DNA of 64,000 nt from a virus. Each line of letters begins with the position of its first letter. Position 1 is the stretch's first letter. Under the pieces are notes generated by a model. It ran no database searches and had not been told where the DNA came from. It was given only the letters and a program-made list of their open reading frames with translations. The stretch is taken from UHGV virus genome UHGV-1550212, one strand, 5' to 3'. Positions 3,021 through 58,655 of the stretch are shown in pieces. A program made the position numbers and the translations under genes.

Positions 3021-3051
3021 GTCTGTAAATTGAGATGTTTGTATATGTATA

Positions 3052-3059
3052 TTGTACAA
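3052..3059 (-). promoter_or_regulatory. TTGTACAA palindromic promoter-associated motif about 30 nt upstream of topoisomerase start
   Basis: same palindrome followed by AT-rich tract recurs upstream of many minus-strand genes. Confidence 0.4.
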
Positions 3060-3207
3060 CAAGAATGCAAAACTTGCACTGAAAATATACACATTTTCAC
3101 ATAACAGCAAGCATAATGCCAAGCAGCACTGCAAGACATATCAAACCTATGCCAAGAACAATAAAGTCCAGCATAGAATACGTGTCATTAGACTGTTTCA
3201 TAAGTAG

Positions 3208-5473: not shown

Positions 5474-5505
5474 ATTGCAGAGGTTTAGTATATTTGACTC
5501 TATAT

Positions 5506-5513
5506 TATTTATA
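5506..5513 (-). promoter_or_regulatory. T4-type late-promoter-like box (TATAAATA on minus strand)
   Basis: plus strand reads tatttata; embedded in a ~40-nt block shared with the region upstream of gene 19686..20558. Confidence 0.35.
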
Positions 5514-5677
5514 GATTAATACTACACACTTGCAGATTTTGCACTTAATTGATAAATAATTTGTAAACATTTTCACAAACTTTTAACAGCTCTTTCGCTT
5601 ATGAAAACTACTCAACTCTGGTTTGAACGCCAGCAGTCAATCGCGGGGGGGCTCTTCGTGCTCCTGATTACATAGAT

Positions 5678-6370
5678 GTGCGGTTTACGCTCGTAGATGA
5701 TATGAGCATACATTGTGCATATATGCCAAACATATATGTGTTTGCTGATGGCAATGAGTATGCAATATCTCCAATAGGTTCACAATCACTTGATTATGAC
5801 GGCTCATGTATTGTACGTATTACCAAGTCAGACTGGATTGAAATGTTTGGCGCTGGTGTTACACAAGGCAGACTTAAATTTGGCTATGGTACAAATGAGC
5901 TTGAATTTTGTGAATTGATAAGCACTGCAACTGCTGAAGTCAAATTCGTTATTGGTTATGAGCAAAACCAGTCTGTCACTGCAACATTTAGTGATTTGCT
6001 GCATAATCCACTTGTCGCAACAAACAACAATTCTGCACAAGCAACAATTACATATACATTTAGTCATGCGACATTTAGAACAGCAGCATTTACGATTATC
6101 GGTAATGTGACATTTATTCCAGGCGGTGATGTAAGTAAAACAGCTATAATTCTTGCGCCTAATTATAGTATAACAATTAAGTACACTACGTCATCAACGC
6201 CAAAACTATTTGAGCATTCAATGACATTTGAGCGTAACAATGAAATGCTTGAGTATGTTGGCACTGAAGTAGACAGACATGCGTATTGTCAAATGAGACG
6301 TAGAACTACGGGCTCAACTGTATATTGTCATGTGTATATTGATGATAGCATGCTTAATATGATGGATTGA
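5678..6370 (+). CDS. hypothetical Thr/Ser-rich protein (230 aa; non-ATG start in track, first ATG near 5702)
   Basis: ORF track; plus-strand gene in a minus-strand context, preceded by a G7 run. Confidence 0.4.
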   Translation: MRFTLVDDMSIHCAYMPNIYVFADGNEYAISPIGSQSLDYDGSCIVRITKSDWIEMFGAGVTQGRLKFGYGTNELEFCELISTATAEVKFVIGYEQNQSVTATFSDLLHNPLVATNNNSAQATITYTFSHATFRTAAFTIIGNVTFIPGGDVSKTAIILAPNYSITIKYTTSSTPKLFEHSMTFERNNEMLEYVGTEVDRHAYCQMRRRTTGSTVYCHVYIDDSMLNMMD

Positions 6371-12988: not shown

Positions 12989-13030
12989 TGTAACAGTGCA
13001 TTTAAGTGTTTTAACTGTTTTATGTATAAA

Positions 13031-13038
13031 TTGTACAA
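13031..13038 (-). promoter_or_regulatory. TTGTACAA promoter-associated motif upstream of nrdJ
   Basis: about 45 nt upstream of ATG 12988, followed by TTTATACAT. Confidence 0.4.
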
Positions 13039-13058
13039 CAATGGGCAAAATTTTGCAT

Positions 13059-13104
13059 CAACTCAAAACAGCCAAGCAATTCATTGCTTGGCTGTTTTGA
13101 GTTG
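13059..13104. terminator. 46-bp perfect palindrome (22-bp arms, 2-nt spacer), likely terminator
   Basis: caactcaaaacagccaagcaat tc attgcttggctgttttgagttg. Confidence 0.5.
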
Positions 13105-18111: not shown

Positions 18112-18137
18112 TGTGTAGTGTTGCTTATATGAAAATA

Positions 18138-18145
18138 TTGTACAA
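18138..18145 (-). promoter_or_regulatory. TTGTACAA promoter-associated motif upstream of nucleotidyltransferase-kinase gene
   Basis: lies in a ~40-nt block nearly identical to 25369..25408. Confidence 0.4.
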
Positions 18146-18182
18146 CATGCATTGCAAATTTGCAATGATACAACATGCATTG

Positions 18183-18440
18183 CTATTTTGCAAGATGACA
18201 ATGCTTACGCCATACTGCAATTTCAACATCTGTAGCAAAATCAAAGTGCAAGCCATGCAATTGTTTCATGTCATATTGACGTCTTGCAATATACTTGTTG
18301 CCAACTCGCTCAACAACAGAACCAACTTCTACTACATTTTTAGAATGTCGTGGCTCATGTAATGGCACTCTGAATATGTATCTGCCATCTAATGTTGACA
18401 TTATATCACCATTGTCAATTATGCCTGTTTGCCTGCTCAT
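18183..18440 (-). CDS. hypothetical protein (85 aa)
   Basis: ORF track. Confidence 0.4.
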   Translation of the reverse strand: MSRQTGIIDNGDIMSTLDGRYIFRVPLHEPRHSKNVVEVGSVVERVGNKYIARRQYDMKQLHGLHFDFATDVEIAVWRKHCHLAK

Positions 18441-19611: not shown

Positions 19612-19629
19612 GATGTGTATGCTTATGAA

Positions 19630-19656
19630 AGGAAGAGCTCAATTGAGCTCTTCCTG
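19630..19656 (-). terminator. terminator hairpin (palindrome aggaagagctcaattgagctcttcct)
   Basis: perfect inverted repeat with the same caattg loop as hairpins at 22852 and 35654. Confidence 0.55.
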
Positions 19657-20558: not shown

Positions 20559-20653
20559 TGTAGTAGAGGTTTGTTAATTTATTATTTATAGATATATAAT
20601 ACTACGACAATGCAAATTTTGCACTGTCGTAGCATAAAAGTTTACACATTTTT

Positions 20654-22793: not shown

Positions 22794-22851
22794 TTGAAAT
22801 GCATTTGTATATGATAATTGTACCACGTATGCATCAACTTTGCACACAAAA

Positions 22852-22879
22852 CAAGACCAGCTCAATTGAGCTGGTCTTG
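22852..22879 (-). terminator. terminator hairpin (caagaccagctcaattgagctggtcttg)
   Basis: perfect palindrome; identical core to 35654..35681. Confidence 0.55.
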
Positions 22880-23474: not shown

Positions 23475-25232
23475 CTACTCTGCTTTTGTTGCTTGCATCA
23501 GTTCAGCAAAGCTTACAGTGTAAGCATCTTCACCAACAGTCACATATGCAGCATCAACATTTGAGTCATTGCCTGTGTATGCAACCAAGGTGCCTGCTGG
23601 AATTTCTACACCGTCAATTGTTAGCATCGAATTGACAAGCTTGTATGTCTTGTTATCTTCGAAGTTCTCATTGACATATGCAGCAGCAATCATTGTTGAA
23701 CGTTTACGAGATTCATTGACAAAGCTTGCGCCAACAAGTTCTGACAGCTTCTTCTTTGTTGCTGCAGAGCATTTGTCATATGCAATGTCAATTGCGAGGT
23801 CTACATCACCAAGTTCCTTTGCAATGAGTTCATCAATCTGAGACAGCTTCTTGTCATCTTTGACAGCGACAAAATTCATTGCAAACTTGCGAGCGTTGTC
23901 TGACAATGATTCATCAATGTTCCACTGTTTCATCAATGTCTGCTTCAACACCTTGTCAAGTTCTGACCAGTCCTTATCTGCAAGAGTAGTTGCATCAAAG
24001 TCTTCATTGCTGAACTGCTTCAGCACTTTGACTTTGTCATCATGTGACAATGCTGACCACTTGTTTGCAGCGTCTTCAGCAGATTCAAGCAGAGGCTTGA
24101 TTGCATCTTTGAGTTCTTGCGGCCAAGTTTCAGGCGCTTTGAGCAGCATCTCAGATGAGTTGTACTCAAGCATGTCTGTCATGATTGCAAGCTTGACATT
24201 GTTAGCTTTCTCTTCAGGTGACAGAGCTTTGAATTTTTCAGCCCAGTCTTCAGATTCAGTCACGATTGATGCAGGCTTTGCAAAACCAGCAACAAAAACG
24301 AGCTTGTACATGATGTTCGTCATGAATGAGCAAGCTGCATCGATATCTGACTGAGTTGCTGCAGATTGAGCATCACGAATGTTGAGCAATGCCTGACGAA
24401 GAGACATAATGCCTACAACAGGGTCAGACCATGTCAATACAACTGAACTATCGATTGTGATGCCCTTGTCAAATCGCATATTTTCTGCAATGCGGTCAGC
24501 AAGTTCAGGCAGTTCAGTGTAGTACTGCTCAAGCGCTGCATGTGCAGCAGGAATTGAAACTTTTGCAGCATCAAATGCGTTGTTGATGTGCATAACATGC
24601 GCAGTTTGAATTGACTGCATCAACATCGACACTACTGCAGATTCTGTTGCAACATCATCTGTTGCAGCTTCATTAACAAATGACGCCATTGCATTTTGCA
24701 GCATGTATTGATGGTCTCGTACTGGCAACTCAACAATTTCAAAGCCTTCAAGAGACTTTGGCGAATCAGTTGCTGAACCTGCTTCAAGACACTTCTTTGA
24801 TGCATTGTCAATGACAAACCACATCTTTTGTGCTTTGAGTGCAATGTAAGTCTTGTCTTTTGATTGCTGAACAGTCATGTTGTCAAGAGCCAACGCACTG
24901 ATTGGCAAATTCTTGACTGCTGACTTGTCAAGTGCTTCATTGACTGCTACATTGTCATCACTCATTAACTGAGTATTTGCAGCAAATGTTGCAGAATCAA
25001 TGCTAAGCTCTTTGCCATCAGGCATAGAGAACTTAACTGCATCTGCAACATCAAGCACTTGCACCATGGCGCCTGCTTCGACTTTGTCATCACCAACAGC
25101 GAACTCAGTTACAACCTGATATGCCTTGTTAGCTTCAACAGTTTCAACAGACTCCATAATGAACTTTGCTGTACTGCAAGAGATTTTGTGCTTTTTCATG
25201 TTCATGTATGAATTTGAGTGTTTGTTGTTCAT
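23475..25232 (-). CDS. hypothetical acidic protein (585 aa), candidate head/internal protein
   Basis: ORF track; motifs SFVNE-A, SFVNE-S, YVNE-N, AVNE-A. Confidence 0.5.
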   Translation of the reverse strand: MNNKHSNSYMNMKKHKISCSTAKFIMESVETVEANKAYQVVTEFAVGDDKVEAGAMVQVLDVADAVKFSMPDGKELSIDSATFAANTQLMSDDNVAVNEALDKSAVKNLPISALALDNMTVQQSKDKTYIALKAQKMWFVIDNASKKCLEAGSATDSPKSLEGFEIVELPVRDHQYMLQNAMASFVNEAATDDVATESAVVSMLMQSIQTAHVMHINNAFDAAKVSIPAAHAALEQYYTELPELADRIAENMRFDKGITIDSSVVLTWSDPVVGIMSLRQALLNIRDAQSAATQSDIDAACSFMTNIMYKLVFVAGFAKPASIVTESEDWAEKFKALSPEEKANNVKLAIMTDMLEYNSSEMLLKAPETWPQELKDAIKPLLESAEDAANKWSALSHDDKVKVLKQFSNEDFDATTLADKDWSELDKVLKQTLMKQWNIDESLSDNARKFAMNFVAVKDDKKLSQIDELIAKELGDVDLAIDIAYDKCSAATKKKLSELVGASFVNESRKRSTMIAAAYVNENFEDNKTYKLVNSMLTIDGVEIPAGTLVAYTGNDSNVDAAYVTVGEDAYTVSFAELMQATKAE

Positions 25233-25368
25233 ATGATATGATATATATCAAGTGCAGCAATTGAACAGATTGCAAAAACAATGCTCAGACTGTAAAGTCT
25301 GAGCATTGAACGACTAAATTGTACATCTTCCACAATGATATAGAATCATTGTTAATATTGTATTGATA

Positions 25369-25453
25369 TTGTACAACATGCATTGCATATTTGCAATGAT
25401 ACAACATGCAAAATGCACTTGCACTTTGATGCAAAGTACTGCGTACACAACAT
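25369..25453 (-). promoter_or_regulatory. intergenic regulatory cassette: TTGTACAA motif plus 29-nt element duplicated at 26556..26584
   Basis: 25425..25453 tttgatgcaaagtactgcgtacacaacat is identical to 26556..26584; 25369..25408 nearly identical to 18138..18178. Confidence 0.45.
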
Positions 25454-25482
25454 GCATCGCGTATTTGCATTTTGACGCAATG

Positions 25483-26505
25483 TCATTGTTGTTTATGCCA
25501 GCCATATGATGCCTGACCAGCATCATACACTTCTACGAAGCCATGGTCGTACATAAAATCTTCATTACGAGTGCCCTTGCCCCCATTAGTGCCAAGAATA
25601 CGGTCTGCGCCATGCATAAGCAGCATATTATTTGTGACATGTTGCTTTGTCAGCATATTGAACCAGTGTTTGCTATATGACAAGCCAAGACCATCAAAGC
25701 CCAGCTTTGTGTACACACCACCGTCAAACTTGCTTAAATCACAATATGATAACACAGATTCAGGGTCATATGTCTTGATAAAGTGCTTAAAGATTCGTTC
25801 AGCACCACCAACAACTTTGGTTGCTGCACAAAGACGTAGCAATTCATATTGATAGCGCTTATTGTATCGTGGACGACCAAATGTCATAAGTTGATGAATG
25901 ACATAACCACCAAGCAACTCAAGTGGATGACCTTCAATCAACGCAAGATTGATAAAATTGCCTGAGCACTTGCCTTGCAAATGATGTTCAATCAAAAATT
26001 GATTTGCAGTATACTTGTCAATTTCAACAACTTTAAGCTTGCGAGCATATACAATCTTTGATTTGTCTACGATTTGATGCTTGATGTGATTGATAACTTT
26101 CTTGGCGTCATCCCAGTCCCACACATGAATGCAATGAAAGCCTGCTGATTTGGCGATGTCTGTTTTCTTTGCATGAATATCACAAGGCAAATGCGAATCT
26201 TTTGCATCATGCATAAACAGATGTTCAAATGAATGTGTGCTGTTATGTGAAAATGCAGGATTGATGTTAATGACAATATTGTCATGTCGAAAATCGAAGA
26301 CTTCATCGCCAATGACAAAGTTGCGCTCAAAATTTATACCGACATGTTTGAGTAACACTTGATGCCACACATCTTTATAGGCTGATTCAAGCTTGCTTAG
26401 CTCATCACAGTTTGCAATGTTTTTGTAACGTTGAATAGCAGCATCAAAGTCAAGATTGACTTCAGCGTAGTCTGCATTTTTATCGTAGTGAAATTTTGAG
26501 CTCAT
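25483..26505 (-). CDS. Vsr/DUF559-like nuclease-domain protein (paralog family; N-terminal nuclease module, extra C-terminal domain)
   Basis: NIVININPAFSHNS and GFHCIHVWDWDD match the family module; C-terminal GFVEVYDAGQ tail; ATG at 26505. Confidence 0.5.
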   Translation of the reverse strand: MSSKFHYDKNADYAEVNLDFDAAIQRYKNIANCDELSKLESAYKDVWHQVLLKHVGINFERNFVIGDEVFDFRHDNIVININPAFSHNSTHSFEHLFMHDAKDSHLPCDIHAKKTDIAKSAGFHCIHVWDWDDAKKVINHIKHQIVDKSKIVYARKLKVVEIDKYTANQFLIEHHLQGKCSGNFINLALIEGHPLELLGGYVIHQLMTFGRPRYNKRYQYELLRLCAATKVVGGAERIFKHFIKTYDPESVLSYCDLSKFDGGVYTKLGFDGLGLSYSKHWFNMLTKQHVTNNMLLMHGADRILGTNGGKGTRNEDFMYDHGFVEVYDAGQASYGWHKQQ

Positions 26506-26528
26506 GTGTATAATTTTGTATGAGATTA

Positions 26529-26536
26529 TTGTACAA
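26529..26536 (-). promoter_or_regulatory. TTGTACAA promoter-associated motif
   Basis: about 20 nt upstream of ATG 26505. Confidence 0.4.
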
Positions 26537-26612
26537 CATGCAAATGCATGTTGCATTTGATGCAAAGTACTGCGTACACAACATAAAGTACAAGTTTGTC
26601 TTTTGATAGACT

Positions 26613-27674
26613 TTACTTTGTATTGCTACGCGTCATTGTTAAATGACCGCAATCATACACATCAACTTCTGTTTTGCCAAGCATGCATGTATGACAATTT
26701 ATTTTGAAATCTGCTGCAGCGTAATCAGGATAGTTTAGTGGAGATTCTTTTGACAAATCAATTTCAATTGTGTCAGTAGTTTTAAGCTGTTCAGTACCTG
26801 CAATGATATCTGCAATAAGATTGATAACTTCTTCTTGTGAATCCCAATCAAACACAGTTATGCAACGATAGCCTACATCAAGTGCAAGTTTTGTTTTATT
26901 GTAATGGTATTGCGCACCAATAACATTGTTGTCTTTTGCTCGACCAGTTAAATATGCAAAACTAACAGTGCAGTTGTGCGTAACTGTTGGACAAATTTCT
27001 ATAAGTAACTTTGCAGGCTCATACTGCAAATCATATGTTTGATTATTGATGTTAAACTCGTACTGTGTATCAATTGCCAACTGTCGTAATAACGCATCAT
27101 GCCACATCATATTACATTTAGAAATTGTTTTGGATGACAATCTGCATTGAGGCAATTGACATGGCCAATCTACGCCGTACATTTGTTGTGTTGTTTGACG
27201 CATTTTGTTAACATCACCAAAATGATTGCCATATCGATGCTCTTTGGTTTTAAGCGACTGCTCAATATTGACATTGCCTACACAACCATAACGTTCAAGT
27301 TTTGTTGCAGCAGTTTTGCTAACATCACCATGTCCATTACCAAATTTGGCGACTTTAGTTGCAAGTATTTTATGACTTGGGCCAAATGCATTGCCATACA
27401 ATTCTTGTTTAGTCGCAAGCATTTTGTCGATATTACAACCAGCGCCATAAGTGTTATGCATAGTTTGCATACGCTGTCGAATAAATTTTGGCACAGATAA
27501 AGGACTTTCTACACCATATTTGCGTAAGCAACTGATTTTGCATGCGTACTTTTGCTTGATGACAGAATGTGCATTTCGACGTCCTATGTAAGTATTTTCT
27601 GATGTAGCAGCAAGCTCTGCATCTCTAAGAACTTCAAGTGCAGCAATTCGTGCTTCAATTTCTTCAGATGTCAT
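26613..27674 (-). CDS. RYG-repeat / Vsr-DUF559-like nuclease (putative free-standing homing endonuclease)
   Basis: seven ~21-aa tandem repeats each with R/K-Y-G (KYG, TYG, LYG, KFG, RYG, RYG, MYG); C-terminal LLIEICPTVTHNCT...GYRCITVFDWDS...VDVYDCGH. Confidence 0.55.
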   Translation of the reverse strand: MTSEEIEARIAALEVLRDAELAATSENTYIGRRNAHSVIKQKYACKISCLRKYGVESPLSVPKFIRQRMQTMHNTYGAGCNIDKMLATKQELYGNAFGPSHKILATKVAKFGNGHGDVSKTAATKLERYGCVGNVNIEQSLKTKEHRYGNHFGDVNKMRQTTQQMYGVDWPCQLPQCRLSSKTISKCNMMWHDALLRQLAIDTQYEFNINNQTYDLQYEPAKLLIEICPTVTHNCTVSFAYLTGRAKDNNVIGAQYHYNKTKLALDVGYRCITVFDWDSQEEVINLIADIIAGTEQLKTTDTIEIDLSKESPLNYPDYAAADFKINCHTCMLGKTEVDVYDCGHLTMTRSNTK

Positions 27675-27695
27675 TTTTTAATAGCATATTGATAA

Positions 27696-27703
27696 TTGTA
27701 CAA
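27696..27703 (-). promoter_or_regulatory. TTGTACAA promoter-associated motif
   Basis: 22 nt upstream of ATG 27674. Confidence 0.4.
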
Positions 27704-27760
27704 CATACAAATGCGTTTTGCATTTTTGATGTAGCAATTGCTTGCACAGTTTGCAAAAAA

Positions 27761-27791
27761 GAACCGCTTGCAATCTAATTGCAAGCGGTTC
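27761..27791 (-). terminator. rho-independent terminator downstream of the major capsid gene region
   Basis: 13-bp stem gaaccgcttgcaa / ttgcaagcggttc, 5-nt loop, followed by T6 on the minus strand. Confidence 0.6.
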
Positions 27792-27840
27792 AATGAATAC
27801 GTTTGTCAGAAACTGTCAATGTGTGCAATCGCTTGAAGAG

Positions 27841-27963
27841 TTAGCTGAACAGCTTGTTGATGCGATTGCTGCATTGGTGACTACCAAGCAGCCCATTGAA
27901 CATTGGATTCGACATCAACGTCTTTGTGGTTGTTGTTGAACTCACCAAGCCAGCAAGTATCAT
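27841..27963 (-). CDS. possible small ORF (40 aa) in capsid-gene 3' region
   Basis: ATG at 27963, TAA at 27841..27843; GC-rich codon usage like the capsid gene; weak. Confidence 0.2.
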   Translation of the reverse strand: MILAGLVSSTTTTKTLMSNPMFNGLLGSHQCSNRINKLFS

Positions 27964-28021
27964 TTAGCAAGTTTCCAAACTTAACGTACTTGTCGTTCCC
28001 CGGCTTGGGTGGCGCAGGTTG

Positions 28022-29825: not shown

Positions 29826-31217
29826 TCATTTTTCAATCTTTTTGAGCAATGCATGACCACAATCATAGACTTCGACGAAGCCTGACGCAATCATTTGTTG
29901 CCTATCAAACCCATTGTCAAGTAGATGTTCCCATGTCTTTGTATTGTGCCAATGCAATTGAATTGATGATTTATCTGTACTAAGCTGCGGATTTTTTGAA
30001 AAGTCTGCACAGTCAATTTTGTCACCGTTAAGATGCTTACGAATGCATTCAATGACAGTGTCGTGGTCATCCCAGTCCCATATTGTTATGCATACATAGC
30101 CATGTTGTAATGCAATTTGTGTCTTGTCAAAATGACTATCATGTCTCTTTGGCCTATTACGCTTTGTGCGCTTAGTAATATATGCATATGAGTATGTTGA
30201 GTTATGCGAAAATGTTGGATTCACTTCAATCAACAATTTGCAATGTTCATTTTCATAATGCAAGTCATATGAAAAGCCAAGTAGCTTAACATCGTCATAA
30301 CTGCAATCAATGTTAAGCTCTTGTTGCAACTTATCATGCCAAAATTGATTTGGCTTAGATATTATGTTGCCTTGACTGTTTATGCAGTTAGAAGTCATAC
30401 ATGACCATGGCACGCCATAACGCTCAATGTTTGTTTTGTTTGCACTTGCTTGAATTTTTGACAATGGGCCCCATGGATGACCATACTTTGCACGCTTGAC
30501 ATCTGCACCACGTTTAGCAACTTCACGATAATCGCCATAACGCTCTTTTCTTGTAGCAAGCATTTTTGCAATATTGCCCGCGCCACGAGAGCCATATCTA
30601 AGCTCTTTAGTCTTTTGAGCTTTGGCGTAATCACCACAAAATGCATTGCCATATCGAGCAATTTTTGTTGCTTTCATTTTTTCAATGTTGCCTGCACCAG
30701 CATTGCCATAACGTTCAAGTTTTGTTTGCTTGGACAATTCAACATTGCCAAATTTGTTGCCATAACGCACTAATTTTGTTTCTTGTGAACGTTGACGTAT
30801 TTCTTGCACTTGTGCACAGTATTCTACGCCATAGCGTTTTAACATTGTTATTCGTTGATTATATGCACGTTTAATAGGTGCATGCGATGTTCGTTTTGGC
30901 CCATATTTAACAAACTCAGTAGATGCAAGTAATTCATCACGCTCACGTTCAAGTTCTGCAATTCGTTGTTGTATATGGACATCATACACAGGCTGCTCAG
31001 AAATGTCATCAATAGCTGTCGTTTCTAATTTAGCAAGTTTGCGTTTAAGAGCTTTTGTTGTTTGCGTGCAGCTCATTTTTATCAATGCATGTGCATGTCT
31101 GCCACAGTCAAGTACAATGTTAGGCTCATTTGCAAGGCGTTCATCACGTTTACATTCTGCAGCATGTATTGCATCAATAAGTTGTCGTCTCTTTACATTA
31201 TATTCGTCTTGTGTCAT
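29826..31217 (-). CDS. RYG-repeat / Vsr-DUF559-like nuclease (putative homing endonuclease)
   Basis: tandem repeats (KRYG, VRYG, ERYG, ARYG, LRYG, ERYG, AKYG, ERYG); C-terminal FSYDLHY...LLIEVNPTFSHNS...GYVCITIWDWDD...FVEVYDCGH. Confidence 0.55.
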   Translation of the reverse strand: MTQDEYNVKRRQLIDAIHAAECKRDERLANEPNIVLDCGRHAHALIKMSCTQTTKALKRKLAKLETTAIDDISEQPVYDVHIQQRIAELERERDELLASTEFVKYGPKRTSHAPIKRAYNQRITMLKRYGVEYCAQVQEIRQRSQETKLVRYGNKFGNVELSKQTKLERYGNAGAGNIEKMKATKIARYGNAFCGDYAKAQKTKELRYGSRGAGNIAKMLATRKERYGDYREVAKRGADVKRAKYGHPWGPLSKIQASANKTNIERYGVPWSCMTSNCINSQGNIISKPNQFWHDKLQQELNIDCSYDDVKLLGFSYDLHYENEHCKLLIEVNPTFSHNSTYSYAYITKRTKRNRPKRHDSHFDKTQIALQHGYVCITIWDWDDHDTVIECIRKHLNGDKIDCADFSKNPQLSTDKSSIQLHWHNTKTWEHLLDNGFDRQQMIASGFVEVYDCGHALLKKIEK

Positions 31218-31950: not shown

Positions 31951-32646
31951 TCATCGTACAGTGAATGAATTATCGTCATCTTCTGTAGTAGTTGGGTCAT
32001 CAATTACATCGTGGCCAATACCTGACATGGGCTCTGGCTCAGGTTCCGGTTCAGGTTCCGGTTCAGGTTCCGGTTCAGGCTCCGGTTCAGGTTCCGGTTC
32101 AGGTTCCGGTTCAGGTTCCGGTTCCGGTTCCGGTTCAGGTTCCGGTTCAGGTTCCGGCTTGGGCTTTGATGAATAGTTAAACATCTTGTGAATCCATTTG
32201 CACCACCATTTGTGACATGCATGTGCGCCATCATGATAATACGCTTGCAGCTCCATTGGAATTGCATGATATGCTTTGTCATGTGACATACCTTTGAATA
32301 TTCGCAAGTACACATAGCACAAGCAATATGCAATGTAGTACATAAGCGGTGATGCAAGCAGCCACCACCAGCTAAGCACATTGCATGCTGCAAGCACAAT
32401 AAGTACAAGCAACGTCGCAAGTGTTACAAAGATGAATTGCTTTGCATGCACAGCTTCATGCTTCAAGGTCTCAGAGTATCTGCTAAGTGTGTCATCATAT
32501 GACTTATCACTTCTTATGAAGCACATTGCACACAACGACATTGCATAATAATGTGAAAATGGAATGCATGGCTGGTCGATGACAAGCATTGGTCCAGCAA
32601 ACCACAGTCGCCACTGAGATTTATTTGGCAGTGTTGCAGTTTTCAT
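31951..32646 (-). CDS. membrane protein with HExxH motif and long (Pro-Glu)n repeat
   Basis: HEAVH motif next to two hydrophobic helices, then about 25 PE dipeptides and an acidic tail. Confidence 0.5.
32029..32160 (-). repeat. hexanucleotide tandem repeat (ggttcc/ggttca)n encoding (Pro-Glu)n
   Basis: about 22 near-perfect 6-bp units with a 12-bp super-period. Confidence 0.9.
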
Positions 32647-35547: not shown

Positions 35548-35653
35548 GTTCGTTATCGTATTTGTTGTAAATTGTGAAATGTTGCTTTGTTTGATTATAA
35601 CTTGATATATGTATGTATATGATGACATCAAACATGTTGTTGACCAAAATCAA

Positions 35654-35681
35654 AAAGACCAGCTCAATTGAGCTGGTCTTT
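35654..35681 (-). terminator. terminator hairpin (aaagaccagctcaattgagctggtcttt)
   Basis: perfect palindrome identical in core to 22852..22879. Confidence 0.55.
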
Positions 35682-39953: not shown

Positions 39954-40622
39954 ATGTCAACAAACAATCATGGCAAGCTCAGATTGCTTGAGCTCAAAGA
40001 AGCACAGCCATATGACACGCTCAAAATTGGCATTGACGTATCAGTAGATGCTACTGGCATGTGCATGATATTTGGCAAAACTGTTGCGCTGTTCAAATTT
40101 ACGCCGCACTTGCCACCAGAAGATGACAGTTCAGATGATGTGAATTTTGTGCAGTTCAACAAAATCTATCTGCAAACATCATCTTCTGCAAGAGAACGCT
40201 CAAAAATGCATACTCGACACACACTTGCAAACAAGATTGTTGACGCGATTGATATGTTCATGCAGGAAATTTGGCCGAATAGCCCAGCAAACATTCAAAT
40301 TGTTACAGAAGGGTCTGCATATGGCTATGCCGCACACAACTCTAACAGCTTGGTAGAACTTGCTGAATTTAGAAGCGTGATTTTAGAAAGAGTCTATCAT
40401 CGTTGGCCACTCGGCACGCATCTAAGTCTTGACGTTATTGCGCCAAAATCATTGAAGAAACATGCAACCGGTGACGGCAAAGCAGACAAACTAAAGATGA
40501 TTGAAGCTGCAATTGCTAAGTTGACACACATTCATTGGGCAGGCAAAATTGACGATGAATGCGATGCATTGCATCTTTGTCTGTATGAGCCATTAAGCAA
40601 TCCTGAACCACGACTTTGGTGA
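39954..40622 (+). CDS. RuvC-like Holliday junction resolvase
   Basis: KIGIDVSVDATG (catalytic Asp region), IVTEGSAYG, KSLKKHATGDGKADKLKM and DECDALHLCLY parallel RuvC motifs. Confidence 0.55.
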   Translation: MSTNNHGKLRLLELKEAQPYDTLKIGIDVSVDATGMCMIFGKTVALFKFTPHLPPEDDSSDDVNFVQFNKIYLQTSSSARERSKMHTRHTLANKIVDAIDMFMQEIWPNSPANIQIVTEGSAYGYAAHNSNSLVELAEFRSVILERVYHRWPLGTHLSLDVIAPKSLKKHATGDGKADKLKMIEAAIAKLTHIHWAGKIDDECDALHLCLYEPLSNPEPRLW

Positions 40623-40788
40623 CATTACATCGTACAACATAAGTTTCATTTCAAAAACTCAATTCATATGCAAATCCCTCGTAACTGGGGGTGGGGCACA
40701 ACAAGCCCTCCAAGTCAAAGACGGCGCATTTGACATCACTGTGCGCTTTACATGTGAAAGCTCTACAGCTGCACAATATAAGTACATC

Positions 40789-41049
40789 ATGGTGCACATT
40801 GATGGCTTACATGCAGCAGGTCAATATGCATATCTTGGCGTATCATTGTCACAGACAGGCGTCATATACCATGCAAAGTGGACATCTGGTTCTGGTACAG
40901 GACCTCAAGGCCCATTTAAGCCAGGCACAATTATCAGATTTGGCTTGCACAATTCAGTGTCATCAACTACAACGCCTCGTGCAATGCAAGCAATAGAAGT
41001 TGACGCAAAGCAATTTGGGCAAAATTATGCTATATTGTTTCAGCTGTAG
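40789..41049 (+). CDS. hypothetical small protein (track ORF 40741..41049 with GTG start; first ATG at 40789)
   Basis: ORF track; preceded by GGGGGTGGGG run. Confidence 0.3.
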   Translation: MVHIDGLHAAGQYAYLGVSLSQTGVIYHAKWTSGSGTGPQGPFKPGTIIRFGLHNSVSSTTTPRAMQAIEVDAKQFGQNYAILFQL

Positions 41050-42981: not shown

Positions 42982-44220
42982 CTATACACGTCTTGTCAAT
43001 TTGACATGACCGCAGTCATCTGCAAGCAGTTTAACATGACCGCAGTCATCTGCAAGCAGTTTAACATGACCGCAGTCATAAACTTTGACGAAGCCTGCAT
43101 CAATCATAGTTTGCTCATCATGATTGCAGTCAAGCACATGTGTATGAGTTTTCATATTGTACCAATGCAAGCCGATGTAAAAGTCAGTCTTGTGATATGC
43201 GTCAGTATATAATCGTGGGTCATCTATAGACAAATCAAGTTCGACGCAGTCAGCAGTCTGCAGTTGTTCTGTGTCAGTTAGCAATGATTTGACAAGCTTG
43301 ACTACAGCATCAAATGACATCCAATCAAATACAGTGATGCATCTATAGCCATGTTGCATAGCTGTGCAACATTTGTCAAAATGCGTAGTTGATGCAATTG
43401 GCTTGTTGACTGTAGAACGACCAGTAGCAAAATCAAATGCAAATGTGCTGTTATGCGTAAATGACGGATTGACATCAATTAGCAAATTGTCATATCGCAA
43501 ATCAAATGCGTAGCAATCTACGTCATGTTCATATTCAAAATCAACACCAGTATGCTCAAGTAGCATATCATGTAACAAGACGTTTGGCTTTGTAATGATT
43601 TTGCCATTTGCAAGTCTGCACTTCTGAGTTAAACAATGCCAAGGCACGCCATATCGTTCAAGTGTAGTGTTGCTAATCTTCTGCAAATTGCCAAAACCGC
43701 TGCCATAGCGTAATTGCTTTGTGACTGTTTGCTGTGCAACATTACCATTAGCATGACCAAACTTGTTGATGTTTGTTTGCTTGCGCTTAGCATTTGCAGT
43801 TGCAATATCAACAGATTCAAGTGACTCAAGAAATTTTGACATGTCGCCAAGCCCATTGCCATATAGTTGACGTTTAGTGTCAACAACTTTTGTCATGTTC
43901 CAGTGCTTGTAGCCATATCGAGCTTCTTTTGTCGCAAATGCTTTGTCATAGTTGCCAAAGCCTGCATGACCATATCGTTCAACTTTTGTTGCAGCAATTT
44001 TGTCTGAGACTTCTTTAAGCTGATGTTTGTATTCAACGCCAAACTTGCGCAAATTTGATATGCGAATGTTGAACACTCGTTTGACTTTTGTATGCGTAGA
44101 GCCTTTGTCAAGCTTTGCATATGGAATTTGTGCAAGTGCAGCGTCTCTTTCATCTTCAAGCTCTCTTATTCGAGCTTCAAGTGCATCACCAGCCAAAACT
44201 TCTATGCGTATAGTCTGCAT
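42982..44220 (-). CDS. RYG-repeat / Vsr-DUF559-like nuclease with C-terminal tandem decapeptide repeat
   Basis: N-terminal ALEARIRELEDERD coiled coil, RYG repeats, LLIDVNPSFTHNS...GYRCITVFDW...FVKVYDCGH; C-terminus DCGHVKLLAD repeated three times. Confidence 0.55.
   Translation of the reverse strand: MQTIRIEVLAGDALEARIRELEDERDAALAQIPYAKLDKGSTHTKVKRVFNIRISNLRKFGVEYKHQLKEVSDKIAATKVERYGHAGFGNYDKAFATKEARYGYKHWNMTKVVDTKRQLYGNGLGDMSKFLESLESVDIATANAKRKQTNINKFGHANGNVAQQTVTKQLRYGSGFGNLQKISNTTLERYGVPWHCLTQKCRLANGKIITKPNVLLHDMLLEHTGVDFEYEHDVDCYAFDLRYDNLLIDVNPSFTHNSTFAFDFATGRSTVNKPIASTTHFDKCCTAMQHGYRCITVFDWMSFDAVVKLVKSLLTDTEQLQTADCVELDLSIDDPRLYTDAYHKTDFYIGLHWYNMKTHTHVLDCNHDEQTMIDAGFVKVYDCGHVKLLADDCGHVKLLADDCGHVKLTRRV
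43001..43080 (-). repeat. 30-bp tandem direct repeat (about 2.7 copies) at the 3' end of the nuclease gene
   Basis: ttaacatgaccgcagtcatctgcaagcagt repeated. Confidence 0.85.
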
Positions 44221-47264: not shown

Positions 47265-47729
47265 TCAGAAGATGATTTTGCCTGCTTGCTGATTGATAAT
47301 TACATGTGATGTGCTTCGCCTGTTTGCGACAATTGATGCATTAGATGCTTGTGCTTCAACTTTGTCTGTTGTAGTTTTATTGACTGTCTGTGGAACTGTT
47401 TTTGCATCTGCATTCTGCTTGTATGTCAGCACTGTTATGGCATCATATACAGAAGTCTCAGGCACAAGCAAGATGTCATTAGGCTCAAAATCAAATGGGG
47501 ACTTGCGATTGTTGAATGTCATCAATTGCTCAATGCCGCGTTTATGCGCGTATACGTACTCAGATAAGCCAATAGGATTTGCTGCATACACAGGATGCAC
47601 AAGAGCAACACCGCCGACACCGACAGTGTCAAATTGTCTTGATTGCGTAGCTGTTATGGGTTCATCTGAGTGCAATGTAACATTGTCAAGCAATGGCATT
47701 GCAACATCATCATAATTATCTGTGACCAT
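47265..47729 (-). CDS. hypothetical protein (154 aa)
   Basis: ORF track. Confidence 0.45.
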   Translation of the reverse strand: MVTDNYDDVAMPLLDNVTLHSDEPITATQSRQFDTVGVGGVALVHPVYAANPIGLSEYVYAHKRGIEQLMTFNNRKSPFDFEPNDILLVPETSVYDAITVLTYKQNADAKTVPQTVNKTTTDKVEAQASNASIVANRRSTSHVIINQQAGKIIF

Positions 47730-47781
47730 GGTAGATGTGGTTTATGCTTATGAGATTGAGACATGAAATTGAACATCAATG

Positions 47782-48405
47782 TTATGCATTGGCAATTTCA
47801 GATGGCATTCTGAACTTGATGTCATTATACACAAATGTCAATGTGAATGTCATCACGTTCTGGTCTACACGAGTTTTGTCATATGTGAGTTCTGAAATTG
47901 CAGAAAACACGACATCAATGAAGTCGATGCCAAACAATGGTTTCTTTGCACCGCCATATGTCGCTACAAATCTGCAGGGCTGAAAGTAGATAGTTTCGCG
48001 TTTATCGTTAGCGTATCTGAACAAACTCTCTAAGCAACAAAAATAGCTTAAACCACCATTCGTCAATCTGCATGTCACCTGGATTCGCTTATCAAGTGCT
48101 TGATGAATTGTCTTGCTGCCCTTATGAAACTGTGTAATTGACTTCTTCATGCCACTGTCATCAAGAACTTTATTGACATTCTGAGTAACAATTGGCATCG
48201 ATATGCCCATCAATGACACAGACTGAATTGAATCATGCAACAAGTCATTGATGTCATAAATGATTTGTGTTGGTTGTTGCACAAACACTTTATTGTAAGT
48301 ATCAGCAATATCTTGCGGAATCAAATCAATTGGCAAGTCAAAGCGAAACTGGTCTGACCGTGTATCGAGAATGAGCATATTTTTGATAATTTGTTTATGT
48401 ACCAT
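47782..48405 (-). CDS. hypothetical protein (207 aa)
   Basis: ORF track. Confidence 0.45.
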   Translation of the reverse strand: MVHKQIIKNMLILDTRSDQFRFDLPIDLIPQDIADTYNKVFVQQPTQIIYDINDLLHDSIQSVSLMGISMPIVTQNVNKVLDDSGMKKSITQFHKGSKTIHQALDKRIQVTCRLTNGGLSYFCCLESLFRYANDKRETIYFQPCRFVATYGGAKKPLFGIDFIDVVFSAISELTYDKTRVDQNVMTFTLTFVYNDIKFRMPSEIANA

Positions 48406-49604
48406 TAACTGTCATACGACCAGTGACCACAGTCATACACTGGCACAAATCCAGTGTCAAGCATTTCTTGCTCAATAAAGCCATCATCAAGCAAATGTTC
48501 ACCTGACTTCGTATTGACCCAATGCTTCTTAATTGTGCATTCATCAACCACAAAGGGATTAAGTGCATTGTCAGTGCAATCAATGAACACATTATTCAAA
48601 TGCGCGTCAATGACATGCAGCACAATTTCTGGGTTGTGCCAATCAAATATCATAAGTGGCGTGTAGCCACATACAATTGCAAGTTGTTGCTTCCACCAAT
48701 GATAGTTTGGCTGTTTTGCTTCTGCGGCATTTCGTTTAAAGCCATACACGCTATTATGAGTATGCGTCGGGTTAACGTCAATTAGCAGATTGCCATAATA
48801 CAGGTCATATGATGTTATGCCAACATCATGTTCAAACTCAAAATGCACACCAAGATGTTCTTCAATGTATGATTGCCACCATCTGTTTGGCGCAGATATG
48901 ATTTGCCCATTTGCTTGCATACATTTATTTGTCATGCAAAACCATGGCACACCGTAACGTTCCATACAGGTTTTTGAAATTGCAGCAAGCCATTCATCTT
49001 TGTCTCTATGCGGCCATGCATAACCATAACGCAGACGACATGTTTGTTGAGCTTTAGCAACGATTGGCGCTAAACGTTCACCGTATATTTCACGTTTAGT
49101 TGCGATGGCTTTGCGTGGATTAGTCCATCCAGCATCACCCCATCGCTCAAGCTTCGTTTGCTGAGATTTTTCAACAATCAGTTCAAGATTCTCACCATAT
49201 TTTTGACGACGAGTTTGCATTGCTGCAACATAATCTGTAATGCATCTATGGCCATACAAACGTTCTTTTGTCGCACTATGTGCTTTATCGCCATATGAAC
49301 TGCCGTAGCGTGCAACTTTAGTGGCAATTGTTTGCTTGATGTTGCCTGCTTTAGAACCATAACGAGCTTCTTTAGTTGCTACGCATTTTTGTTTGACTTC
49401 TGCTCTGTTCCAATTATGCTCAACGCCATGTTTACGAAGATGGCCAATTTTCATGTTGTACACGTTTTTGATATGACCATGAGATGTCTTACGTGGTGCA
49501 TATCGTACAAATGGTGTTTCTGCAAGCAACTTATCTCGTTCAGCTTCAAGCTCTTTAATTCGAGCTTCAAGAGCTTCACCAGTCAAATGCTCTACATGTT
49601 TCAT
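48405..49604 (-). CDS. RYG-repeat / Vsr-DUF559-like nuclease (putative homing endonuclease)
   Basis: N-terminal ALEARIKELEAERD, tandem RYG repeats, LLIDVNPTHTHNS...GYTPLMIFDWHN...FVPVYDCGH. Confidence 0.55.
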   Translation of the reverse strand: MKHVEHLTGEALEARIKELEAERDKLLAETPFVRYAPRKTSHGHIKNVYNMKIGHLRKHGVEHNWNRAEVKQKCVATKEARYGSKAGNIKQTIATKVARYGSSYGDKAHSATKERLYGHRCITDYVAAMQTRRQKYGENLELIVEKSQQTKLERWGDAGWTNPRKAIATKREIYGERLAPIVAKAQQTCRLRYGYAWPHRDKDEWLAAISKTCMERYGVPWFCMTNKCMQANGQIISAPNRWWQSYIEEHLGVHFEFEHDVGITSYDLYYGNLLIDVNPTHTHNSVYGFKRNAAEAKQPNYHWWKQQLAIVCGYTPLMIFDWHNPEIVLHVIDAHLNNVFIDCTDNALNPFVVDECTIKKHWVNTKSGEHLLDDGFIEQEMLDTGFVPVYDCGHWSYDS

Positions 49605-50089
49605 TCGTGTTTGCCAGTTTGAAATAACGAATCAATTGGGATGTGAATACCAGGTTTGGATTGAATGTTCCATCCGCGCGCCAAACCATTAAGTACGCAG
49701 CTCGTAAGGTAAGAAAACGCGTTTTGAGTTACTGTTGGGTCAAACATTTGCCACTTTGACGCCAAAATTAACATGGCTTCTGCTGCGACATCTGCTTGTA
49801 AGTCTTTGTCCCTGTAGTATAAACGTCTCTGCACATGTTTGATAAGCAACTCAAACATGTGTATAAGTTTATTTGACAGCTGTCCAGATACTTTGCATGC
49901 GCATATTTCTGCACAAAGTTCTTTGCTGTTGATGTAATAGTTTGATGGCTGACCTCGCTTCTTTGTGTTTGCAGCTTCTTCACGAAGTTGGTCTTCAAGT
50001 TGTGTCAACATGTCATCATCTGACACGTATTGAATATGCTTGTCTTCTGGTAGTTTAGATTCTATTGGTTGTAAGTTTTGCAGTGGCAT
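49601..50089 (-). CDS. late transcription sigma factor (T4 gp55-like), putative
   Basis: YYINSKELCAEI...AMLILASKWQ...NAFSYLTSCVLNGLARGW parallels gp55 conserved regions; ATG at 50089 downstream of TTGTACAA motif at 50119. Confidence 0.5.
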   Translation of the reverse strand: MPLQNLQPIESKLPEDKHIQYVSDDDMLTQLEDQLREEAANTKKRGQPSNYYINSKELCAEICACKVSGQLSNKLIHMFELLIKHVQRRLYYRDKDLQADVAAEAMLILASKWQMFDPTVTQNAFSYLTSCVLNGLARGWNIQSKPGIHIPIDSLFQTGKHE

Positions 50090-50153
50090 AGCAGTGAGCA
50101 TTAAAATTCCTATATAAATTGTACAACGCTTTGTGCACATTTGCAATCATAAA

Positions 50154-50181
50154 AAAGCTCAGCCAATTACGGCTGAGCTTT
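50154..50181 (-). terminator. terminator hairpin
   Basis: 11-bp stem aaagctcagcc / ggctgagcttt with A-run/T-run flanks. Confidence 0.5.
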
Positions 50182-53137: not shown

Positions 53138-54430
53138 CTACAACAATGACGGCACTCGTTGAGTTTCAAGTGGGTCGCTGACATTGATGCCTGTGTATGC
53201 AACAAGTCGTTGTATTGGGCCAAGTACGAGTTTTTCGAACATGAGTCGTTTGTTCATTGGCGGCACATCTGGCATATACTTCGGTGTCGGCATTTCGCCT
53301 GGTGCAAAGCCAAATGCATCGCAATATTGACGAGAGCCAATTGGTATATTTGACAAATCTGACTTTGCTCTGTCAACAAAGTAGTAGAACACTCGACCGC
53401 CTTCAATCAATGGGTATCGTGTTTCCAATCCATGTGCTTTGACAAGACAGTTATGCCAACAACATGCTCTATATTGAGGCAGTACACCTTTTGCTAACTG
53501 CCATTCACCATCATAGCTTAGCACATAGTCATGATACTTGTTTGCATTGACATATGCACAAAGTTTCTCCAAGTCTTGCTCGGCTTCAAAGCGTTTCCAT
53601 AATTTCTGTATGAGCTTTGGATATGTCGCAGAAGTTAATTCGCCTCTGAACATTTTCTTGAATGCATAATCAAGCATTTGTCTAACAAGCATTGACGAGC
53701 CTGTTTGAATAAGTTCGATGCCTTTGCCTTGAATGTGCTCAGTAGGGTCTTCGAATACTCGACCATCTACATATATTTGAGCCTTTAAGTACTTTTTCTT
53801 TTGGGCAAATAATGCAGTGTCAGAAATCGTTTCGAGGTCAAATAGCAAAATTGAATTGCCGTGGCGTTTTGCGAGGTCTGCTGCATATGCACCATTGAAT
53901 AACTCTTCCATACGATATTTGAATATCGCAAGAATCAAGTCATACCAATTTTTGCCTATGTAGCCAATTGATTTGACAGTTGGCTCAAAGTGAATGTACA
54001 AAGAGTCTGTATCAATGTACAACACTTTGTCTTCATAAGGCTCTTGCTTTGGCGACACAGACAAATCAAAATTGCCCTTCAATTGTGGGTCATTACGCAG
54101 CTTTTCATGCAATTCATAATCACACCACCACTTATTGTTGAGATAGTCATTTGCTACTCGTTCACCAAAGTGAATGAAGTTGCGGCCTTCAGCAGTAATT
54201 GATTCTGCAACTGCCATATTAAAGAAGTGATAGAAACGATTGCTTGTAGCGCCATATATTGAGTTTCGACAACATTTTGCTGAGACTTGCAGTCCTGCAT
54301 GCTTTAGTGATTCTTGCATTGCAAAATCTCTCAATTCAAATAGACGTTCAGTAGACAACTGGCTTAAATCACCAGTCAAATCTACTCCATCTATTTCAAT
54401 TTTTGACATATCTATCTGAGCTTCTGCCAT
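53138..54430 (-). CDS. family-B DNA polymerase, C-terminal (polymerase motifs B and C) fragment
   Basis: motif B KCCRNSIYGATS (KxxxNSxYG), motif C YIDTDSLYI (YxDTDS). Confidence 0.8.
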   Translation of the reverse strand: MAEAQIDMSKIEIDGVDLTGDLSQLSTERLFELRDFAMQESLKHAGLQVSAKCCRNSIYGATSNRFYHFFNMAVAESITAEGRNFIHFGERVANDYLNNKWWCDYELHEKLRNDPQLKGNFDLSVSPKQEPYEDKVLYIDTDSLYIHFEPTVKSIGYIGKNWYDLILAIFKYRMEELFNGAYAADLAKRHGNSILLFDLETISDTALFAQKKKYLKAQIYVDGRVFEDPTEHIQGKGIELIQTGSSMLVRQMLDYAFKKMFRGELTSATYPKLIQKLWKRFEAEQDLEKLCAYVNANKYHDYVLSYDGEWQLAKGVLPQYRACCWHNCLVKAHGLETRYPLIEGGRVFYYFVDRAKSDLSNIPIGSRQYCDAFGFAPGEMPTPKYMPDVPPMNKRLMFEKLVLGPIQRLVAYTGINVSDPLETQRVPSLL

Positions 54431-54571
54431 AAGTTGTTTATTTTTGATTAAATTGTACTACACATGTTGCAATTTTTGCAATACACATGTTAAACCAAAA
54501 TGCAGCAGCAGATGTTCTGCTGCTGCATCGGCAGGTATCTTCACAATTGTTTGAGTTGATTGCAATGCGAT

Positions 54572-56709: not shown

Positions 56710-56723
56710 TTATTGTTATGGTG

Positions 56724-58244: not shown

Positions 58245-58655
58245 TTAGAATAGAGATATTGTACAACAATTTGATTCAGGTTGCCATTCTACAATATGCG
58301 CATCAAAGTGTTTGTTAAGCCAATGTGCAAGTATGTGTCTATGACAAAATGCAGATAGTCTGCACCAACATAACAATACAATGTCTCGTTCGCCTGCAAG
58401 AATCTTTATGCGATGCAGCATCAAACTTATCTGTGACAATGCAGCGTCAAGTTTTGCTGCATATTGCTCTGCATATTGTGCATTGTCAAGCAAGCCTGCT
58501 TTATGCAAACGAACAAGTGACATGTAATCAGGCATGACGTCAGTCCATGTAAAATCTGCTATGAAGCCCTTAGGCTTTGTTGCAGACACTTGAACAAGAA
58601 ATGCGTTATCAGGCAGATGCCTGCATGCATAATATGAAGTTAAGATTCTTGTCAT
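58245..58655 (-). CDS. hypothetical protein (136 aa)
   Basis: ORF track. Confidence 0.4.
   Translation of the reverse strand: MTRILTSYYACRHLPDNAFLVQVSATKPKGFIADFTWTDVMPDYMSLVRLHKAGLLDNAQYAEQYAAKLDAALSQISLMLHRIKILAGERDIVLLCWCRLSAFCHRHILAHWLNKHFDAHIVEWQPESNCCTISLF

Follow-up and report, generated by a model that had tools for sequence, protein, structure and literature searches.

Promoter-like units, probably copied between loci, at the edges of homing-endonuclease-like genes in a gut phage

Repeated promoter-like units beside two nuclease-like genes

The 64,000-nucleotide stretch of phage DNA analysed here (the window, W) contains two adjacent minus-strand genes for homing-endonuclease-like (HE-like) proteins. 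HE-A (25483–26505, 340 amino acids) matches phrog_3339, 'homing endonuclease' (6.6e-42), and HE-B (26613–27674, 353 amino acids) shows DUF7487 only; the two are 29% identical over 136 amino acids. A sequence-only reading of the window had called them nuclease paralogs; the word nuclease is backed by the PHROG annotation only. All convincing genes of the region lie on the minus strand, so the repeats described below are to be read as reverse complements.

A 29-nt element (TTTGATGCAAAGTACTGCGTACACAACAT) occurs in exactly two exact copies in the window, at 25425–25453 and 26556–26584, both on the plus strand. The identity and the position of each copy just 3' of an HE-like gene had been pointed out in the sequence-only reading and are exact, with no match in 100 shuffles even when 3 mismatches were tolerated. 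The copies begin about 30 nt past the minus-strand stop codons of HE-A (25483–25485) and HE-B (26613–26615), are spaced 1131 bp apart with HE-A in between, and sit within 65 nt of 75% similarity (25411–25475 versus 26542–26606). The other repeat, described earlier as a block of about 40 nt that is near-identical at 18138–18178 and 25369–25408, extends to 18135–18179 and 25366–25410, in which 44 of 45 bases are equal (98%, repeat family D5). Megablast of 24000–28000 against GenBank phages gave no match.

On the minus strand, the spacer 3' of HE-A consists of three stacked units, which we call X, Y' and Z, and the HE-B/HE-A spacer consists of units X and Y. Unit Z (TTGCAA-N17-TACAAT, 25368–25396, minus), found by a consensus scan, is the core of the 25369–25408 block and has the second-highest family-matrix score in the window (47.4). 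Promoter-like unit Y' (GTGCAA-N17-TATCAT, 25396–25424, minus) was read from the sequence, and unit Y (ATGCAA-N17-TACAAT, 26528–26556, minus) ends 23 nt ahead of the HE-A start codon. The 29-mer, ATGTTGTGTACGCAGTACTTTGCATCAAA in the minus-strand reading, lies directly 5' of the −35 box of Y' at 25425–25453 and of Y at 26556–26584, and spans the 3' half of X together with the lead-in to the following −35. X can be read from the sequence as a pseudo-promoter (ATGCAA-N17-TGTACG, 25442–25470, minus) that is sub-threshold in the family matrix; its −10 (TGTACG) is poor, the conserved A2 and T6 being missing. At the distant locus, unit P2 (TTGCAA-N17-TACAAT, 18137–18165, minus), which corresponds to the 18138–18178 block, ends 26 nt ahead of the ATG of a nucleotidyltransferase-like gene and has an upstream tandem partner, P1 (TTGCAA-N17-TATCAT, 18165–18193, minus), 28 nt apart. 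A pattern scan of a metagenome collection found no X, and in IMG/VR X occurs only in one close relative, contig R.

By their sequence, the repeated blocks are members of one promoter-like family, TTGCAA-N17-TACAAT with conserved TGTTGTACAATAT, read on the minus strand; the '40-nt block' with its TTGTACAA motif is, on that strand, TTGCAA-N17-TACAAT inside a conserved ...GCATGTTGTACAATAT. We built a family matrix from 12 copies and scanned both strands of the window. The scan gave 15 hits, every one on the minus strand, where the genes lie, while the plus strand yielded none; they scored 17.9–48.4 against 4.2 for the best shuffle, and all 15 were intergenic after three ORF over-calls had been set aside. 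The simpler pattern TGCAA-N17-19-TAnAAT likewise has 11 minus-strand occurrences and not one on the plus strand. In 12 of the 15 members the ATG comes 17–54 nt after the −10; for the promoter at 25368 it is 136 nt away. When the 15 members were compared as 40-mers, the pair 18173/25404 had 38 of 40 positions in common, against a median of 22/40 and a next-best value of 30/40.

Where they can be named, the genes behind these sites are early-type or HE-like. Matrix hits precede the genes for the topoisomerase II large subunit (3048–3087, minus), the ribonucleotide reductase large subunit (13027–13066, minus; a long terminator hairpin ahead), the gp55-like late sigma factor (50115–50154, minus; a terminator ahead), the DNA polymerase C-terminal part (54449–54488, minus; a terminator hairpin ahead) and the DNA polymerase N-terminal part (58255–58294, minus), as well as HE-A and HE-B. 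The unit before HE-B (ATGCAA-N17-TACAAT, 27695–27723, minus) has the capsid-gene terminator (27761–27791) ahead of it, a composite like the promoter-early stem-loop elements (PeSLs) discussed below. Only about 5–6 of the 15 members have a terminator hairpin directly upstream; the feature is seen at 27731, 22853, 50154, 54488, 13066 and the L002 locus. Co-orientation with the genes, intergenic position and distance to the start codon are as in sigma-70-type promoters, which the family resembles, and we infer promoter activity on these grounds. A role as early or middle promoters in a T4-style programme would fit.

Several further motifs accompany the family. Both TTGCAA and TTGTACAA are palindromic boxes (for example, at 18134–18173, 20593–20632 and 13027–13066), and an inverted repeat, TGCAA(A)-N0-7-(T)TTGCA, runs across the −35 and spacer in around two thirds of the units. 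Many family promoters have a CATATAAT-like box about 4 nt past the −10 and could be dual early/late cassettes. A separate motif ahead of other genes, CTATAAATAAT, resembles the T4 late promoter; before several genes it is followed by a conserved leader, AACCTCTACTACAATG (5479–5514, 20565–20591, ~13759 and ~62175, minus strand). The gp55-like late sigma factor gene itself is at 49601–50101 (phrog_234, 1.9e-7).

Among GenBank phages, W has protein-level relatives only, with capsid identity of at most 37%. Its Gp23-like capsid protein is 37% identical to that of the Sphingomonas PAU and Chryseobacterium MA9V group, which makes the phage distantly T4-like. A Shine–Dalgarno-like motif was seen for only 2 of the 54 genes, and the closest relatives in culture infect Chryseobacterium, Tenacibaculum and Sphingomonas; these features suggest that the host may be a member of the Bacteroidota. 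Matching contigs come from the human gut metagenomes ZEEV15, COST17 and GAOR21. The housekeeping promoter of Bacteroidota is TTG...TAnnTTTG. Reading the family as this promoter was rejected as a poor fit, and intergenic DNA shows no enrichment of TTG...TAnnTTTG; the dominant promoter motif is a classical-looking −35/−10 pair, despite the suggested host.

Folding of the arrays and a terminated non-coding unit

PeSLs are known from the T4-like phage pairs RB49/phi1, PST/T4 and nt-1/KVP40 (Arbiol et al. 2010, PMC2839356; Comeau et al. 2014, PMC4122927). By definition, a stem-loop terminator stands just before a strong sigma-70-like promoter, and a Shine–Dalgarno sequence and start codon come after the promoter; the elements lie near indels between close phage pairs, where mini-circle formation is possible (PMC2839356; PMC4122927). 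The sequence-only reading had likened the repeats to PeSLs and described them as portable promoter or stem-loop modules, proposing RNA structure prediction as a check. Folding gave no significant stem-loop at the 29-mer (z=0.03) or at either array (25366–25490, z=−1.26; 18130–18210, z=−0.85), so that the stem-loop part of this description is not supported. The spacer at 26520–26625 does fold (z=−2.73), from a hairpin inside the promoter spacer and not upstream of it. A GUAC/GUAC mini-hairpin was considered and discarded, as two substitutions in R break its pairs without compensation.

The likeness to PeSLs holds for the promoter part. Hexamers of −35 and −10 type are 17 nt apart at 25368–25396, 18137–18165 and 26528–26556, but the repeats singled out in the sequence-only reading have no upstream stem-loop, the units following directly after an HE stop codon, and no Shine–Dalgarno sequence with a start codon stands at the 3' end of the cassettes, in keeping with the scarcity of that motif in this genome. 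What remains of the earlier description is its portable promoter-like modules: a 28-nt unit, a 77-nt block and a 16-nt patch, described below, vary by strain.

Past the array, a structured non-coding unit of about 85 nt (25274–25361, minus) contains a hairpin (25332–25352) and then an intrinsic terminator (25279–25308) with a T-run. It folds far better than its shuffles (z=−5.5; 0/200 equal it), and neither hairpin varies in any strain, the few substitutions being in the linker. The next gene past it starts at 25232. From this layout, the proximal promoter at 25368 would drive a terminated non-coding unit and not a gene. The unit may be a small RNA, a leader or simply an operon terminator; Rfam and tRNA scans of the window were empty. 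Two ORFs of 61 and 70 amino acids across the array (25285–25470 and 25314–25526) were rejected as genes because a 28-nt indel shifts the frame between strains.

Strain comparison and the edges of nuclease-like cassettes

Comparison of the flanks across related phages had been suggested as a further check. We aligned W with R, a 175.6-kb IMG/VR contig that is collinear with the window at around 95% identity, and with around 20 further same-species loci from human gut metagenomes that were retrieved through capsid-gene look-ups, several of which are exact substrings of the window. Array alleles agree between independent assemblies, and the comparison revealed promoter-like modules that are gained or lost at several loci.

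At the 18135 locus, the polymorphic segment is a 28-nt unit (18147–18174, minus). Four loci have the two-unit allele (W, here labelled L019, with L020, L025 and L026) and seven have one unit and are without the 28-nt insertion (R, labelled L005, with L021–L024, L027 and L028). In L025 the inserted unit has A, where W has T, at the sole position that distinguishes the 18135 and 25366 copies, and so agrees with the 25366 copy at that base. Behind HE-A, the array exists in three alleles: X-Y in the S strains (L010, L014 and L016), X-Z in L033 and L034, which are without Y', and X-Y'-Z in W, R, L032 and L035. The corresponding 28-nt unit (ATCATTGCAAATATGCAATGCATGTTGT, 25373–25400, minus) is present in W, R, L032 and L035 and missing from the three S strains, in which the unit at the Y' position has TACAAT and is itself the proximal promoter.

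The two copies of the 29-mer also differ in their distribution. The copy at 25425–25453 is kept in all strains examined with 0–2 mismatches, and appears from this comparison to be the ancestral X copy; in R it has two substitutions in its GTAC boxes. The copy at 26556–26584 is present in W, R, L033, L034 and L035 and missing from the S strains and L032, and in L017 the two HE genes have no array between them. The difference is a 16-nt derived patch (GTACGCAGTACTTTGC, 26562–26577, minus), which converts the junction ATGTTGT/ATCAAATGCAA into the 29-mer; patchless strains (the S strains and L032) read ATGTTGTATCAAATGCAA at the HE-B/HE-A junction. Presence of the patch is independent of the flanking haplotype, indicating that it has been exchanged more than once.

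Similar variation affects promoters that are unrelated to the two HE genes. The late-sigma gene has three units in R versus one in W, with an extra 77-nt block of family units in R, and the X variant there keeps both GTAC boxes and differs in the triplet between them. A further X locus in R lies behind a terminator and ahead of an unrelated gene, so that X is found at four loci in R, two of which are not beside an HE. On these alignments, both duplications look recent, and they are polymorphic. As in the putative mobile promoters of Matus-Garcia et al. (2012, PMC3488235), highly similar segments stand before unrelated genes and are missing at the orthologous site of relatives; the phage unit differs from these in being only 28–45 nt, in its tandem insertion into a promoter of the same family, and in its setting in a virus population.

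The HE-like genes are themselves variable. The 64-kb window contains five paralogs (DUF7487 / phrog_3339), at 29826–31217, 42982–44220 and 48405–49604 (minus strand) in addition to HE-A and HE-B. HE-A is conserved at 98–99% and present in every strain seen. The HE-B slot is hypervariable: its N-terminal 723 nt are replaced in R, and the alleles of other strains are 57% and 38% identical. Between W and R we counted 15 structural events, of which four are HE replacements or insertions, affecting the HE-B N-terminal part, HE-C, HE-D and an extra 399-amino-acid HE in R at position 56720 of the window (w56720). PDB sequence searches with HE-A and HE-C found no relative of solved structure. In a relative with around 74% capsid identity, none of these slots contains a full-length HE gene, and a truncated HE-A-like remnant possibly follows the capsid gene.

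At several of these cassettes, the edge coincides with a promoter-like unit. The segment inserted in R at w56720 ends in a family promoter, the −35 of which (ATGCAA) lies within the last HE codons. In L017, the leader of promoter Y and the ATG of HE-A have a different, 447-amino-acid HE exactly between them. Where HE-C is replaced, the 5' break is at the −10 of a weak promoter-like site. On the 3' side, the breaks for HE-C and HE-D are within a conserved C-terminal coding motif, VYDCGH, which is triplicated in HE-D (repeat family D16), and the one for HE-B is at another place inside the ORF. From these junctions, the arrays appear to be parts of, or neighbours to, mobile HE cassettes.

Several observations adjoin these cassettes. 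Three tandem 30-nt repeats at 42997–43086 (minus) encode the HE C-terminal motif (..DDCGH.KL), and R retains one copy as a remnant beside a different, 372-amino-acid nuclease-like gene; the repeats look like the scar of repeated recombination at this motif. The DNA polymerase is in two parts, 53138–54430 and 56724–58229 (minus), with four small genes between them, and the extra HE of R with its 3' promoter is inserted directly behind the N-terminal part, at 56720. R also has extra small ORFs (around 70–75 amino acids) in two spacers that are ORF-free in W, w5477 and 47729–47795 (L005 14118–14443; L006 13823–14143), and one of them has a late-like promoter leader on one side and the next start codon on the other.

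The sequence-only reading had proposed that the modules may mediate recombination that moves accessory genes, in which case they should be found at boundaries of gene gain and loss in related genomes. Individual cases (w56720 and L017), in which the arrays are at the edges of swapped or inserted HE genes, are clear; the outcome of a permutation test of W-versus-R events within 50 nt of a family promoter depends on the null. Three of the 15 events were that close, which is more than expected from the whole window (P=0.03) but in line with the 3.7 expected when events are placed in intergenic DNA (P=0.74); beyond intergenic location, there was no promoter enrichment at the structural breakpoints of these 15 events. 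The evidence that the modules mediate accessory gene movement is circumstantial; the exchange that the strains document is that of the modules.

Free-standing homing endonuclease genes of T4-like phages include the seg and mob genes. The HE-like genes share with them the defining traits of a nuclease-family protein in an intergenic slot, between conserved genes, with presence/absence or allelic replacement between near-identical genomes; they are also multi-copy nuclease-like paralogs with their own promoters. They differ in belonging to another protein family (DUF7487 / phrog_3339), without sequence relatives of solved structure and with putative nuclease activity, and in that some HE alleles seem to carry an outward-reading 3' promoter.

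Origin of the repeats and relation to known elements

We observe repeats, a strand and position bias of the family, strain polymorphisms and cassette boundaries. In the reading that we consider probable, the cassettes are the phage's own promoter units, which are copied between promoter loci and lie at the edges of mobile HE genes. The near-perfect copies would then be products of recent short-patch ectopic recombination, through gene conversion or template switching, rather than ancient conserved sites, and the homology used would probably be the 15–20 nt common to all units (GCAATGCATGTTGTA...). Under this model, the 28-nt unit at 25373–25400 and its twin at 18147–18174 would be insertions segregating in the strains, and the 16-nt patch, copied off an X unit such as that at 25425–25453, would have created the 29-mer copy at 26556–26584. 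At some junctions only a few bases are common, which may be easier to explain by slippage or template switching than by homologous exchange of the classical kind. The place of the arrays, just behind HE genes, would follow from their serving as promoters for the gene that comes next. In several alleles the array would move as part of the HE cassette, a 3' promoter reading outward, and an HE insertion would consequently not silence the gene behind it. For X, the candidate roles are those of a decayed unit, an upstream activating site and a binding site.

The strongest competitor, which we regard as possible but disfavoured, is that these are true PeSL-type mobile cassettes, the repeats being recombination sites that move HE and accessory genes; HE-A, for instance, could be excised as a 1131-bp circle. 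The geometry suits this idea, HE-A lying between 29-bp perfect direct repeats within their 65 nt of 75% similarity, as do the terminator hairpins directly upstream of about 5–6 of the 15 family members, which recall PeSLs (PMC4122927), the promoters at HE edges (w56720 in R, L017 and the HE-C 5' breakpoint) and the degraded multi-copy −35/−10 arrays that the PeSL papers ascribe to slippage (PMC4122927). HE-A, however, is missing from no strain seen; the copies in question are without a stem-loop, the 3' breakpoints of HE replacements are in the C-terminal coding motif or inside the ORF and not at promoters, the small-ORF insertions at w5477 and w47729 have a family promoter at neither edge, and the intergenic null leaves no enrichment. 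It is unlikely, to our mind, that X (27–29 nt) is instead a specific protein-binding site, whether an operator or activator site or an HE recognition site, conserved by selection and not by recent copying. X is always directly 5' of a good −35, at around −36 to −65, its core is exact in most strains although the flanks are around 5% different, and both the two non-HE loci in R and the late-sigma variant with its intact GTAC boxes would suit a binding site. Against this, X has neither dyad symmetry nor structure (z=0.03), the copy at the HE-A site of R has substitutions in the very GTAC boxes, strains without X in the HE-B/HE-A spacer retain the same downstream promoter and gene, and neither the insertion point w56720 nor the L017 junction is in X.

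Two other explanations carry less weight. The array and the terminated transcript at 25274–25361 might form a T4-type replication origin, with a promoter-primed R-loop, or a small regulatory RNA gene, the tandem units tuning its output; we judge this improbable. Three stacked promoter-like units do feed an RNA of around 85 nt with two strong, strain-invariant hairpins, and the 28-nt indel leaves no ORF intact, but Rfam gave no match, there is no GC-skew inflection, the structure is not kept in the clade with around 74% capsid identity, and the terminator may do no more than stop transcripts that read through from the capsid and HE genes. It is scarcely credible that an old tandem duplication, comprising an HE gene with its 3' flank, left these repeats behind: adjacent paralogs with a similar 65-nt stretch behind each would be its natural outcome, but proteins of 29% identity contrast with a 29-mer of 100%, some strains have both HE genes but no 29-mer in the spacer, and the same units occur at unrelated loci.

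A more novel reading would join promoter shuffling and HE mobility into one coupled process, with promoter units as the landing pads and co-conversion tracts of the HE family. Under it, double-strand breaks made by HEs near promoters would be repaired from ectopic promoter copies, such repair would carry the 28-nt unit and the X patch from one promoter locus to another, and HE cassettes with their own 3' promoter would home into promoter-proximal leaders. We treat this coupling as a long shot.

Set against PeSLs, the phage units are alike in several respects: a sigma-70-like promoter cassette is repeated genome-wide, with some copies fused to an upstream terminator; copy number and arrangement differ between close relatives, including degraded multi-copy −35/−10 arrays; and copies adjoin variable accessory genes. 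In PeSLs, such degraded arrays have been ascribed to slippage (PMC4122927), and the arrays described here read as a clean form of them. The differences are the lack of a stem-loop at the copies that started this analysis, the lack of a Shine–Dalgarno element, and a phage that is only distantly T4-like; moreover, the clearest events are copy-and-paste of a 28-nt unit into resident promoters, and not ORF shuffling. The cassettes are portable promoter modules rather than PeSLs in the strict sense. They are an ordinary kind of element with an unusually clear evolutionary motion, and not a new kind of system.

These findings would carry the PeSL idea beyond the T4-like phages for which it has so far been described, those of Escherichia, Yersinia and Vibrio, into a distant gut phage lineage that is uncultured and has genomes of around 175–180 kb. 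They would also mean that phage promoters are exchanged between loci and stacked in tandem, here followed at single-unit resolution in natural gut populations, and that a mobile endonuclease gene can bring along a promoter for the gene that lies behind it. Three results are useful for the annotation of this phage group: the promoter consensus, a motif that is a candidate late promoter, and a candidate small RNA.

Other repeated or strain-variable features were noted in the window. Two plus-strand ORF islands (5702–6370 and 39954–41049) stand in an otherwise minus-strand genome, and in R each of them is strongly diverged or replaced. At 32006–32185, inside a 231-amino-acid ORF (31951–32646), at least 11 copies of a 12-nt unit (GGTTCCGGTTCA type) form a tandem repeat that differs in length from R. 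Near-identical terminator hairpins (AAGACCAGCTCAATTGAGCTGGTCTT, 97%) are found at the unrelated loci 22850–22878 and 35652–35680, and also at 19627–19655; judged by this similarity, they appear to be a second class of duplicated regulatory element.
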